64,000 bases of DNA from NCBI RefSeq assembly GCF_003790525.1, contig NZ_CP033635.1; one strand, given 5' to 3'. A model generated the notes under the pieces. It ran no database searches, had not been told where the DNA came from, and saw nothing but the letters and a program-made list of their open reading frames with translations. Shown in pieces: positions 3,751 through 6,706 of this stretch; the first letter of the stretch is position 1; each line of letters begins with the position of its first letter. The position numbers and the translations under genes were made by a program. The DNA comes from Escherichia coli. Lineage in GTDB: Bacteria > Pseudomonadota > Gammaproteobacteria > Enterobacterales > Enterobacteriaceae.

Positions 3751-3817
3751 CTGCCTGAAAACATAATTAACATAATTCACATTGTTCGTAAGCGGCTCGC
3801 CAGAACCGTATTGATAT

Positions 3818-5422
3818 TTACTGAGAGGTCAGATCCACTTTCCAGGGCAACAGATCGCGTACCCGGTTTGCCGGCCAGTCCTGGATATGCTCAATGACGT
3901 AACGCAGCCATTTTTCTGGTTCCACATTGTTCAGACGGCATGTGCCGATCAGCGAGTACAACACCGCCGCATGTTCGCCACCGCTGTCGGAACCCGCGAA
4001 GAGCCAGTTTTTCCGGCCTACGGCCACTCCCCGTAAGGCGTTCTCTGCGATGTTGTTGTCGATTTCCACCCAGCCATTACTGCAGTACACGTTCAGGCCA
4101 TCCCACTGTTTCAGCAGGTATGCGAACGCTTTTGCCGTATCCGAGTGACGCGACAGTGTTTTCATCTGAGTCTGTATCCAGTCATACAGTGACTGCATCA
4201 GTGGCGCAGCTCTGGCTTTTCTTACCGCCAGACGCTGTTCTGCTGAACATCCCCGGACTTCTGCCTCGATGACATACAGTTCACCGATACGCCGCAGGGC
4301 TTCCGTGGTGATGTCGGTTGGCACTCTTGCATGCACATCGTGGATTTTTCTCCGGGCATGAGCCATACACGCGGCTTCCGTTATTCTGCCGGATTCGTAT
4401 AACGCCCGGTAGCCACCGTAAGCATCGGCCTGAAGCACTCCGCTGTAACCGGCCAGATGAGTCTAGGGATGTATGCCTTTCCGGTCCGGACTGTACGCGA
4501 ACCAGACCGCCAGGGGCATTTCCGAACCGGCATTGCGGTCATCACGGACGTAGACCCACAGCCGGGCTGTCCGGGTTTTACCGCTGCCCGGCTCCTGGAC
4601 CGGAACGGGGATATCATCCGCATGGACTTTACCGGGCATCAGCACATACTGGCGCAGCACGTCATACAGCGGCTCCGGCAGTTCAGCAACGGCACCGGTC
4701 CAGCGCCCCAGCGTGGCGCGGCTCAGTTCCACGCCCTGACGACGGTATATTTCTGACTGGCGGTATAACGGCAGATGGTCTGCATACTTCCCGGTGACGA
4801 TATGAGCCAGAAGCCCCGCTCCGGCATAACTGCGTGCAATGGGTTTTGAAGGAACCGGCGCCTGCACAATATGGTCGCACCGGCTACAGGCCCGTTTGGG
4901 ACGTATGGTTTCAATAACTTTAAAGGCGGTATTAATGATATCCAGTTGCTCTGAGATTGTTTCCCCCATTTCTTTCAGAACACCTCCACAGGCCGGGCAA
5001 CTGGTTTCAGCAGGCAGAAGGCGATGTGTCTCCCGGGGAAGTTCTGCCGGCAGCGGTTTTCGTGAAGATTTTCGTCCCAGGGATTCAGGCTTACTGGCGA
5101 TCGGGTTTTCTGACGGGGGACTGGTGTCAGGTGAATCTGTGACTGACGATGCATCTTCCAGAAGATTTCTGGCTGTGTTCAGCCGGTTTTCCAGTTCCGA
5201 CAGTCGTTTTTCTGCCTGTCGGATCTGATTTTCAAGCTTATGACGCTTTTTCTCTGAACTCTGGCCGAACAACATACGACGCAACCTGTCGAGTTGCGCT
5301 TTCAGCCGTTCAATTTCCTGCTCATAGCCCGCGACCTGACAGGTATACTGGCGAAGCCGACTCTGTTGCTTACGCAACATGGCTTTAAGCAGCTCAATAT
5401 CGTCGGGGAGTTCATTGTTCAT
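3818..5422 (-). pseudogene. tnpC: IS66 transposase TnpC interrupted by one in-frame TAG (about 4453-4455); ORF track shows it as 319-aa + 206-aa pieces
   Basis: Both ORFs are in the same frame, separated only by TAG (...[27 protein letters not shown]...). Confidence 0.7.
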
Positions 5423-5441
5423 TCCCTTGTTTTATCACGGG

Positions 5442-5789
5442 TTATATCCGGATGCCAGGCCGTTCTGTCCGTTTGGGATGTTGCCACGCGATCCCCTCCA
5501 GTAGCATGGATAACTGAGCTGGCGTCAGGTGCACTTTCCCTTCCCGGGTCACCGGCCAGATGAAGCGGCCCCGTTCCAGGCGTTTGGCGAACAGGCATAA
5601 CCCATCACGATCGGCCCACAGTATTTTCACCATTTTGCCACTGCGGCCCCGGAAGACGAAGATATGCCCGGAGAACGGGTCATCTTTCAGCGTGTTCTGC
5701 ACCTTCGAAGCCAGGCCATTGAAGCCACAACGCATATCTGTGATGCCAGCGATGATCCAGATTTTGGTACCGGTCGGCAGCGTTATCAT
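5442..5789 (-). CDS. tnpB: IS66 TnpB (orf2)
   Basis: 115-aa ORF with characteristic IS66 orf2 sequence (KIWIIAGITDMRCGFNGLA...). Confidence 0.8.
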   Translation of the reverse strand: MITLPTGTKIWIIAGITDMRCGFNGLASKVQNTLKDDPFSGHIFVFRGRSGKMVKILWADRDGLCLFAKRLERGRFIWPVTREGKVHLTPAQLSMLLEGIAWQHPKRTERPGIRI

Positions 5790-6460
5790 CGGGTACCCCC
5801 TTTCATTTCGCGGATTAGCGCCCGTAACAGTTCCGGAGTGAGAGGGTCAAACAGTTTTACCACACCTGATTTAAGATGCAGCTCGCACCGTGGGACGTTT
5901 CCGGGATCCCCCTCAGGGCGCTCATCAGGCTTGTTACGCCAGAAGGGATTTGTAACTGGTCTGGTCGGCTCTGGCTTATCAGTCAGTGCCACCGGGACAG
6001 GCATGCATTCCTGTATGTCATCATCGCTCAGTAAGCCGTCCTCGTACTGGCTTTTCCATTTAAACAGCAGCTTATCATTGATATCGTGTTCTCTGGCGAT
6101 CCGGGCAACAACAGCACCAGGCTGTAATGCCTGCTTAGCCAGACGGACCTTAAATTCACGGCTATAGCTGGTTCGCCGTTCTTTTCGCCATGAGCCTTCT
6201 CTGATTTGAGGCTCTGTTAATTCCTTCTTTCTGTTGGCATAAAGGATGGCGTCAAGTTGAGCGAATGAAACTGAATCGGGCAATGGCCATGCGATACCGG
6301 ATGCAAGAAATCGCTGAAAAAGCGTATGTATTGTGGAATGACTGAGACCTAGACGCTGAGCGATGGCTCGGATAGTCAGTTTATCTTCAAATCTTAAACG
6401 TAGGGCATCAGGCAAATAAGAACGGAAGCAGAGAATATCTTTTGTTGTCCGGGAATTCAT
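5786..6460 (-). CDS. tnpA: IS66 TnpA-like accessory protein with N-terminal HTH extension
   Basis: C-terminal half resembles IS66 orf1 (SYSREFKVRLAKQALQPGAVVARIAREHDINDKLLFKWKSQY); lies inside the IS inverted repeats; true start uncertain. Confidence 0.5.
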   Translation of the reverse strand: MNSRTTKDILCFRSYLPDALRLRFEDKLTIRAIAQRLGLSHSTIHTLFQRFLASGIAWPLPDSVSFAQLDAILYANRKKELTEPQIREGSWRKERRTSYSREFKVRLAKQALQPGAVVARIAREHDINDKLLFKWKSQYEDGLLSDDDIQECMPVPVALTDKPEPTRPVTNPFWRNKPDERPEGDPGNVPRCELHLKSGVVKLFDPLTPELLRALIREMKGGTR

Positions 6461-6706
6461 CCTTCGTGTCCATCAATATAGATGGGCGCAATTGTTGCCA
6501 GACAGGACAATTTTCACAAGACGTCGCTGATAGGGCGCTTACATTTAGTCTGCAAGGATCAGGAGTTACAGACGGCATTGGCTTTACGCTTACGTATTAG
6601 GTAAGATACATCAACAAAATAATTATGTGGCTTTATACATGGATGTCAGTAGGCTATTTCCGGTTGATATACCCTGCCCGTAAATTACAGGGCAGGAATA
6701 GTATTA

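Follow-up and report, generated by a model that had tools for sequence, protein, structure and literature searches.

The 64,000-nucleotide stretch of Escherichia coli DNA analysed here (the window) carries a hybrid IS66-family element derived from two distinct parents, one ISSfl3-like and the other IS679/ISCro1-like. The object is of a known kind, an insertion sequence (IS) relic whose transposase gene was killed by a Gln-to-stop mutation. Homologous recombination within tnpC, together with an amber mutation in the same gene, very probably accounts for the whole structure.

Layout of the element and family membership

The element reads from right to left in the window and consists of the following parts.

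3788-6542 (2,755 bp), minus strand: whole chimeric IS66-family element, IRL-tnpA-tnpB-tnpC(pseudo)-IRR (ORFs and sequence, Pfam domains)
6513-6542, minus strand: left terminal inverted repeat (IRL, tnpA side), ISSfl3/ISCro1 type, GTAAGCGCCCTATCAGCGACGTC... (alignment to relatives)
5786-6460, minus strand: tnpA, 224 aa, intact; HTH_23 at aa 23-56 and HTH_Tnp_1 at aa 94-170 (Pfam)
5442-5789, minus strand: tnpB, 115 aa, intact; TnpB_IS66, PF05717, E 8.5e-39
3818-5422, minus strand: tnpC pseudogene, 534 sense codons and one internal TAG; LZ_Tnp_IS66, zf-IS66, split DDE_Tnp_IS66 and DDE_Tnp_IS66_C
3788-3817, minus strand: right terminal inverted repeat (IRR, tnpC side), IS679 type, GTAAGCGGCTCGCCAGAACCG..., at 3788 (alignment)

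The organization is that of the IS66 family. The three genes are consecutive on one strand, and the tnpA stop and tnpB start share an ATGA at 5786-5789, as read in the sequence. The HTH_23 match in TnpA is an extra N-terminal domain; the exact protein occurs on 222 contigs and falls in a cluster of 471 members with ISSfl3/ISSfl4-type TnpA. TnpB is of the Orf2 type, with a PF05717 match of 132 bits against a cut-off of 26.6. TnpC combines a leucine zipper, a zinc finger and a C-terminal element (PF13007, E 9e-11; PF13005, 5e-17; PF13817, 1e-16) with an IS66-type DDE domain broken by the amber codon into two pieces (PF03050, E 1e-36 and 6e-56), and all of these matches exceed the Pfam cut-offs. 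The ends are imperfect inverted repeats with GTAAGCG at both termini. The IRL, whose outermost sequence at 6542 is GTAAGCGCCCTATCAGCGACG..., differs from the IRL of an ISSfl3 copy at one of the first 40 nt and from that of ISCro1 at two, and the IRR is the same as that of an IS679 copy over 40 nt. The two repeats agree at 18 of their first 30 positions, compared with 17-19 in intact copies of IS679, ISSfl3 and ISCro1. The 8-bp target-site duplication of the family is missing; such a duplication marks an insertion event rather than family ancestry.

E. coli LH50-c has a 99.9% identical copy with annotated tnpA, tnpB and tnpC in the corresponding position, and there RefSeq (PGAP) already lists tnpC as a pseudogene under the generic name 'IS66 family transposase' with the note 'internal stop'. 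The earlier note had described an IS66-family element with an N-terminally extended TnpA, TnpB, TnpC and GTAAGCG ends, a description that ORFs, Pfam domains and end alignments bear out. Its further view that the element is otherwise complete holds for tnpA, tnpB and both ends, but misses both the hybrid make-up of the element and the absence of the 8-bp duplication.

Two parents and a breakpoint in tnpC

Sliding identity gives 96-100% to ISSfl3 from 6542 to ~4900 and ~96% to IS679/ISCro1 from there to 3788, dividing the element into an ISSfl3-like 5' part of 1.66 kb and an IS679/ISCro1-like 3' part of 1.09 kb. A maximum chi-square analysis of 1,030 informative sites found 673 of 675 to be ISSfl3-type on one side of the junction and 343 of 355 to be IS679-type on the other, a value reached by none of 1,000 permutations. 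The junction falls in the zinc-finger domain, within its second pair of cysteines (CSRCDH, aa 179-184).

4877-4883, minus strand: recombination breakpoint between ISSfl3-like and IS679/ISCro1-like sequence (maximum chi-square; ~415 nt upstream of the TAG)

By ISfinder convention, the same IS implies high identity over the whole element, and neither IS679 nor ISSfl3 matches over the full length; each parent matches one part. IS679 is reportedly an IS66-family member from the E. coli plasmid pB171, described by Han and co-workers in 2001. It shares with the window element the tnpA-tnpB-tnpC order, the extended TnpA and ~96-97% identity in the 3' 1.09 kb (the last ~355 tnpC codons and the IRR), whereas the 5' 1.66 kb (IRL, tnpA, tnpB and the first ~180 tnpC codons) is only 22-82% identical per 100-column window, and the IS679 copy (2,704 bp) has an 8-bp duplication and an intact TnpC of 523 aa. 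ISSfl3, a RefSeq name used in Shigella and E. coli, shows the converse pattern: its IRL, tnpA, tnpB and first ~180 tnpC codons are 96-100% identical and its length is similar (2,754 bp), but the 3' 1.09 kb is ~56-77% identical, and, unlike the window element, it ends in an IRR of its own, is flanked by an 8-bp duplication and encodes an unbroken TnpC of 533 aa. ISCro1 (a RefSeq name; Citrobacter and E. coli) likewise pairs an ISSfl3-type IRL with an IS679-type IRR and is ~94-96% identical in the 3' half of tnpC; its tnpA, tnpB and 5' tnpC, however, are IS679-like rather than ISSfl3-like, and its 523-aa TnpC is intact where that of the window element is broken.

A further comparison is provided by an element that we call the TA008 type (P0044, 'ISSfl3 OrfC', E. 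coli TA007/TA008 and others). It shares the junction between the IRL and a DUF4198 gene as well as the ISSfl3/IS679-like crossover, and is ~99.2% identical from window position 9723 to 4493 (BLAST), with the first mismatches at ~4545. From there it continues into a third IS66 lineage and other flanking DNA, and its tnpC is broken differently (ORFs of 494 and 61 aa, no TAG at codon 320). Because of this divergence, a second crossover at ~4545 was considered for the window element too and rejected, as the element stays within the variation of the IS679 clade on both sides of that point; on the simpler reading, the extra crossover would belong to the TA008 type.

The amber codon and its persistence

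Translation of tnpC confirmed a single in-frame TAG splitting the gene, as the earlier note had claimed, but at 4463-4465 rather than ~4453-4455, a shift of 10 nt; apart from this codon, number 320, the only stop is the terminal one.

4463-4465, minus strand: in-frame amber codon, tnpC codon 320, ancestral Gln; TAG (CTA on the plus strand)
4461-4472, minus strand: cluster of four lineage-specific substitutions including the nonsense change; ATC>ATA, CCA>CCC, CAG>TAG, AAT>ACT

The two ORF pieces (4463-5422 and 3818-4438) share one frame. The DDE_Tnp_IS66 profile (Pfam) is covered from 1 to 119 just before the stop and from 121 to 283 just after it, so exactly one codon has been lost and nothing else is missing. 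The earlier note had allowed that the pieces might derive from different elements, which is true of tnpC as a whole but not of the ORF pieces that the TAG separates, the junction lying well upstream. Alignment to relatives, proposed there as a means of recovering the original codon, found CAG at position 320 in pAVS0193-A, p214_4_132 and ISSfl3 and CAA in IS679 and ISCro1; judged by these five sequences, the ancestral residue is Gln.

The lesion is not the lone point change it had seemed. Four of the nine lineage-specific differences in the 758-nt 3' segment sit within the 12 nt of the cluster. No second copy in the window matched the patch within three mismatches as a possible template, and no unusual fold or hairpin was found around the stop and the patch (z = -0.62). 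Neither a closer relative with CCC-CAG-ACT, the presumed immediate ancestor, nor any other copy with the TAG emerged from the following searches. When the CAG was restored in a 97-nt query, the best match among 5,426 complete E. coli genomes was LH50-c itself, followed by sequences 95.9% identical, and the exact pattern GGCATACATCCCYAGACTCATCTGG was found neither in 100,044 species-representative genomes nor in metagenome contigs.

A sequencing or assembly error, with a transposase that is in truth intact, is almost certainly the wrong explanation of the TAG: the codon recurs in every one of the 20 further full-length copies read, all of them at this locus, namely the complete RefSeq genome of LH50-c and 19 more from independent NCBI and ENA assemblies, and an exact match to the truncated protein of 319 aa is indexed in 32 blocks of an assembly collection, from which 24 contigs were read. 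The amber allele is fixed in a module of at least 9.7 kb, with at least 99.9% identity, that is common to dozens of assemblies. This qualifies the earlier suggestion of a recent inactivation. Most changes relative to the related elements are synonymous (dN/dS 0.05-0.44), and tnpC was therefore under constraint until fairly recently, but the allele is not confined to this genome.

A rival explanation is an amber codon that is tolerated or used, with low-level read-through or suppression giving some full-length TnpC, or with the 319-aa fragment regulating or inhibiting related IS66 elements. A supE-type suppressor would put back the original Gln; inhibitory transposase fragments, truncated or N-terminal, occur in other IS families, with IS1 InsA and Tn5 Inh as general precedents. 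In nearly all copies the frame stays open beyond the TAG, which would fit this explanation; the copies differ by at most 0.3%, however, so the intact frame is uninformative on selection, and in the L035 copy the N-terminal ORF has already shrunk to 231 aa. Of the window's 46 long ORFs, 6 end in TAG, which thus behaves as a normal stop; the window holds no tRNA gene, and the structure around the codon is unremarkable. The same ORF count and lack of a tRNA gene led us to reject the idea that the source genome uses a modified genetic code or suppresses amber codons. A tolerated or used amber is accordingly very improbable. The specific version in which the stop is kept as useful, because the zipper-zinc-finger fragment with intact TnpA and TnpB damps IS679, ISCro1 and ISSfl3 trans-dominantly or because rare read-through restores the original Gln and supplies a very low, self-limiting amount of transposase, is highly improbable.

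An IS110 remnant in the window, which aligns with an intact IS110-family gene between 1286 and ~1013, has in-frame TAG codons as well, at 1167-1169 and 1074-1076. The earlier note regarded this as probably coincidental, and we agree: three TAGs in two IS relics have P ~0.10 if substitution rates are equal, a value that chance can account for, and were not retained as a signal.

Flanks, origin and fate of the hybrid

The sequences bordering the two ends, given in element orientation, do not match.

6543-6550, no strand: 8 bp outside the IRL, GACTAAAT; not repeated at the other end
3780-3787, no strand: 8 bp outside the IRR, GAACAATG; no match to the IRL flank

No 8-bp duplication was found here or in any of the other copies, while control copies carry perfect ones, GGGCAATC on both sides of IS679 and GGGAAGTC on both sides of ISSfl3. 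The neighbours on the IRL side are DUF4198 and TonB-receptor genes of an E. coli genomic island. The right flank in the window is present in 1,436 of 5,426 complete E. coli genomes and the left flank in only one; apart from an IS110 piece and the first 940 bp, the left flank had no match among PLSDB plasmids. The element thus joins a widespread island module to rare DNA with a decayed DsbD/ScsB-like gene and a TRAP transporter. With no duplication and such a junction, it looks like the product of homologous recombination between two ISs rather than of transposition as a unit. A precedent exists in the Agrobacterium plasmid pAt15955, where two IS66 copies recombined into a single IS66 with non-matching 8-bp flanks, one from each parental insertion (PMC6778807), and non-matching flanks are what would be expected of a recombination product (PMC6778807). 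In pAt15955 the two parents did not differ from each other and the deletion was seen directly (PMC6778807), whereas the parents here are ~30% diverged and the product is visibly chimeric.

The alternative of a distinct, genuine IS66-family member that transposed here as a unit and later lost its duplication by adjacent deletion or flank drift is unlikely. Mosaicism is frequent in this IS66 subgroup, and the combination of an ISSfl3-type IRL with an IS679-type IRR recurs in ISCro1, so such ends could cooperate. Against this, the ISSfl3-like left end occurs at the identical DUF4198 junction in genomes that lack the IS679-like half and carry other IS66 rearrangements, which indicates that the left part already occupied this site when the hybrid arose. 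AR_0085 and IMT5155 retain ISSfl3-like remnants of 107-210 bp plus ISCro1 at this junction, and the TA008-type strains have a three-part mosaic there, with the first crossover in common, divergence at ~4545 and again no duplication. Every copy of the hybrid was found at one locus and with the TAG, an uninterrupted full-length hybrid TnpC is absent among 5.8 billion protein clusters, and the two flanks are very unlike in distribution. No donor was found in which the IS679-like half is bordered by flanks of its own. A possible alternative is that the hybrid formed elsewhere and one flank was then lost by adjacent deletion.

The combined results suggest a model of recombination at this locus. An ISSfl3-like element resident beside the DUF4198/TonB-receptor genes would have recombined, in the conserved zinc-finger region of tnpC, with an IS679/ISCro1-like element bearing different flanking DNA, leaving a single hybrid whose left end is of ISSfl3 type and whose right end is of IS679 type, without a target-site duplication. 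The Gln320 CAG to TAG change, as part of the four-substitution patch, would have inactivated tnpC after the recombination, or may already have been present in the donor. Translation would stop after 319 residues, yielding a product that retains both the leucine zipper and the zinc finger, together with the initial ~40% of the DDE domain. From the family motifs and the Pfam split, this product is predicted to lack the second Asp (LQADAY), the CxAHxRR motif and the Glu (NNIAENALR), and the element would consequently be unable to transpose by itself. As both ends, tnpA and tnpB are intact, it may still be mobilized in trans by a related TnpC.

The finding is of little importance beyond annotation, where 'chimeric ISSfl3/IS679-type IS66 pseudo-element' is the proper label rather than 'almost intact' IS, and the element should not be tallied as a transposition-competent copy. 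It is nonetheless a clean, small example of recombination between diverged members of one IS family, in which the missing target duplication and a sliding identity plot tell a recombination product from a transposition product. The DUF4198 anchor point bears at least four different IS66 arrangements across E. coli lineages, each joining the common island module to unrelated DNA.

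Element structure and consequence of the stop codon

The IS66-family element (3788-6542, minus strand, 2,755 bp) holds three ORFs in a row, as defined by ORF calls and sequence:

5786-6460, minus, tnpA, 224 aa
5442-5789, minus, tnpB, 115 aa
3818-5422, minus, tnpC, 534 sense codons and one internal stop at codon 320 (translation)

Both tnpA and tnpB are intact, and the tnpB ATG and tnpA TGA overlap as ATGA (5786-5789). TnpB has a PF05717 match (Pfam). The N-terminal HTH extension of TnpA described in the earlier note corresponds to HTH_23 (residues 23-56), ahead of HTH_Tnp_1 (94-170; Pfam), and is normal in this subgroup, since the identical protein occurs on 222 contigs, in a 471-member cluster. 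Both ends start with GTAAGCG and combine an ISSfl3-type left inverted repeat (IRL, tnpA side) with an IS679-type right one (IRR, tnpC side), a pairing identical to that of ISCro1. Position 6462, which precedes the tnpA start codon (6460) by 2 nt, is G here and C in 20/20 other full-length copies, and is thus a private substitution of this genome.

A single in-frame amber codon in tnpC had been noted previously and is indeed the only internal stop, although it lies at 4463-4465 (CTA on the plus strand), 10 nt from the position first assigned. The upstream piece matches LZ_Tnp_IS66, zf-IS66 and positions 1-119 of DDE_Tnp_IS66, and the downstream piece matches positions 121-283 of the same profile plus DDE_Tnp_IS66_C (Pfam); the stop therefore fills exactly one profile position, with no other loss. 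The 319-aa product still includes the zipper and zinc finger, as well as the KVHADD region (aa 265-270). Downstream of the stop lie LQADAY (330-335), CMAHARR (352-358) and NNIAENALR (456-464); we take them to hold, respectively, the second Asp of the DDE triad, the CwAH-rR signature and the triad's Glu (Gourbeyre et al. 2010, as cited in PMC6778807). As these are positioned past the stop, the truncated TnpC is probably catalytically dead; a related TnpC might conceivably mobilise the element in trans. Recoding or suppression at the TAG would restore a full-length protein, but finds no support: TAG terminates 6 of the 46 long ORFs in the window, the window contains no tRNA genes, there is no structure at the TAG site and the local fold around it is nothing unusual. 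A regulatory role for the truncated TnpC is conceivable but unlikely; the copies are too alike to reveal selection.

Chimeric origin and unequal flanks

The element was earlier considered otherwise complete, a description that misses its ISSfl3/IS679 chimerism and the lack of a target duplication. Sliding identity from 6542 to ~4900 is 96-100% with ISSfl3 versus 22-82% with IS679, and from ~4900 to 3788 is ~96% with IS679/ISCro1 versus 56-77% with ISSfl3. Among 1,030 informative sites, where the parents differ and the window agrees with one, 673/675 on the tnpA side are ISSfl3-type and 343/355 on the other side are IS679-type. Maximum chi-square places the breakpoint between 4883 and 4877 (reached by 0/1,000 permutations), at the second Cys pair of the TnpC zinc finger (CSRCDH, aa 179-184). 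The TAG lies ~415 nt downstream of the breakpoint, so the sequence on either side of the stop derives from the IS679-like part; the possibility that pieces came from different elements is thus rejected for the two ORF pieces beside the TAG, while it holds for tnpC as a whole. No uninterrupted full-length hybrid TnpC was found among 5.8 billion protein clusters, where the top full-length matches were 74-80% identical.

Intact controls of IS679 and ISSfl3 have perfect 8-bp duplications, with GGGCAATC and GGGAAGTC, respectively, at both flanks. An 8-bp duplication is absent around the element studied here (GACTAAAT versus GAACAATG). The IRL-side DNA (DUF4198 and a TonB-dependent receptor) is present in 1,436 complete genomes, and the IRR-side DNA (a frameshifted DsbD/ScsB-like gene) in 1/5,426 complete E. 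coli genomes, with no match for this flank among PLSDB plasmids. The IRL-DUF4198 junction predates the hybrid, as an ISSfl3-like left end is found at the same junction in AR_0085, IMT5155 and TA008-type strains, the last being other E. coli with a mosaic IS66 element there. AR_0085 and IMT5155 carry 210 and 107 bp of this left end, respectively, followed by an inverted ISCro1. Nested IS66-family insertions adjoin DUF4198 in both, with more IS66 and IS3 fragments past ISCro1, and this stretch of the island is a graveyard of IS66 elements, arranged in several alternative ways. The TA008-type element shares the ISSfl3-like part and the first crossover with the window, then changes to a third IS66 lineage at ~4545, and has different flanking DNA again, without a target duplication (GACTAAAT versus CTCATACC).

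The element looks like a recombination product rather than an insertion. In Agrobacterium, homologous recombination between two IS66 copies produced one IS66 with two different 8-bp flanks (PMC6778807), and on this precedent the locus is probably an anchor for repeated recombination among diverged IS66-family elements.

Recurrence, source and age of the TAG allele

At the same locus, E. coli LH50-c (NZ_CP100500) carries an element of 99.9% identity, whose tnpC is annotated by PGAP as a pseudogene ('internal stop'). An exact match to the 319-aa N-terminal product is listed for 32 blocks of the assembly collection, and a search via the neighbouring DsbD-like protein gave the same outcome. Twenty other full-length copies were read (loci L001, which is LH50-c, L016-L025, L027, L028 and L030-L036); 20/20 have TAG at codon 320, 20/20 have a flank pair identical to that of the window, and each has at most 9 differences over 2,755 bp. 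This recurrence and the LH50-c annotation exclude the sequencing or assembly error that the earlier note had allowed for, and the allele also occurs outside this genome. It lies in a shared segment, window 1-9723 (at least 9.7 kb; at least 99.9% identity), beyond which the window and LH50-c part and the window enters core genes including valS, pepA and lptF. The end of LH50-c homology at 9723 thus marks another rearrangement boundary. The whole element has a match of at least 99% in just 1/5,426 complete E. coli genomes.

The aligned codon is CAA in IS679 and ISCro1 and CAG in ISSfl3 and the IS679-like copies on pAVS0193-A and p214_4_132; with Gln in all five relatives, the TAG therefore arose from CAG by a C>T transition. 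It belongs to a patch of substitutions spanning 12 nt and is not an isolated change: the window differs from all four IS679-clade references at 4472 (ATC>ATA), 4466 (CCA>CCC), 4465 (CAG>TAG) and 4461 (AAT>ACT, Asn>Thr). These are 4/9 lineage-specific differences of the 758-nt 3' segment, a clustering with p ~0.002 by our rough scan-statistic estimate. No second copy that might be the template occurs in the window, and an exact-pattern search permitting TAG or CAG gave 0 matches in species-representative genomes and metagenomes. Clustered patches of 3-8 substitutions each are found in the 3' part of tnpC in other copies, eight within window-equivalent 4097-4147 in L020 and short patches within 3977-4023 in L022, L025 and L036, and look like ectopic micro-conversion from IS66-family copies of those genomes. 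Given these similar patches, the TAG patch may plausibly have come from other IS66 copies by short ectopic conversion.

Differences from IS679-clade relatives are predominantly synonymous, with dN/dS, from small counts, of 0.05-0.09 upstream and 0.24-0.44 downstream of the stop. Together with intact tnpA and tnpB, this agrees with a loss of function that is recent on the time scale over which these IS lineages diverged, and to this extent the recent inactivation proposed earlier stands; the lesion is nonetheless older than the spread of the 9.7-kb module through dozens of strains. Some copies have decayed further: in L035 the N-terminal TnpC ORF is down to 231 aa, and in L029 the element is reduced to its last ~450 bp.

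Neighbouring features and overall standing

The IS110 remnant (1013-1286, minus) has homology to an intact IS110-family gene over the first ~91 codons only and is ~90% identical to intact plasmid-borne genes. Its in-frame TAGs, at 1167-1169 (from GAG) and 1074-1076 (from CAG), were earlier deemed probably coincidental. From codon content, ~37% of single-base nonsense changes in tnpC and ~52% in the IS110 gene yield TAG, and TAG in 3/3 nonsense changes (P ~0.10) is compatible with chance.

The DsbD/ScsB-like gene (2000-3780, minus) begins with GTG at 3780, a mere 7 nt from the IS end (3788). It is broken into two ORFs of 73 and 502 aa that lie in different frames, and the 502-aa product has entries in 77 blocks of the assembly collection. 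The LH50-c copy is frameshifted with an internal stop (PGAP), and an additional IS3-family element, itself with a programmed frameshift, has inserted into it (L001 3012-4225; window-equivalent site ~2070-2080); this element is absent from the window. An IS3-family segment at 9721-10605, 96% identical to the AR_0085 one, is followed by a 230-bp piece of another IS66-family tnpC (10606-10835), ~85% identical to the element. Across 9700-30000, the core genes downstream of the island (valS, pepA, lptF, yjgN and yjgR) match even the best of the complete E. coli genomes at only ~97.5-98.6% identity, and coverage by any complete genome is at most 79%, so the source strain has no close representative among complete RefSeq genomes.

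The element is a real, ordinary IS66-family pseudo-element, already flagged in public annotation. Useful corrections to the earlier note concern the TAG coordinate, the ISSfl3/IS679 chimerism, the absent target duplication and the placement of the TAG within a 12-nt patch.
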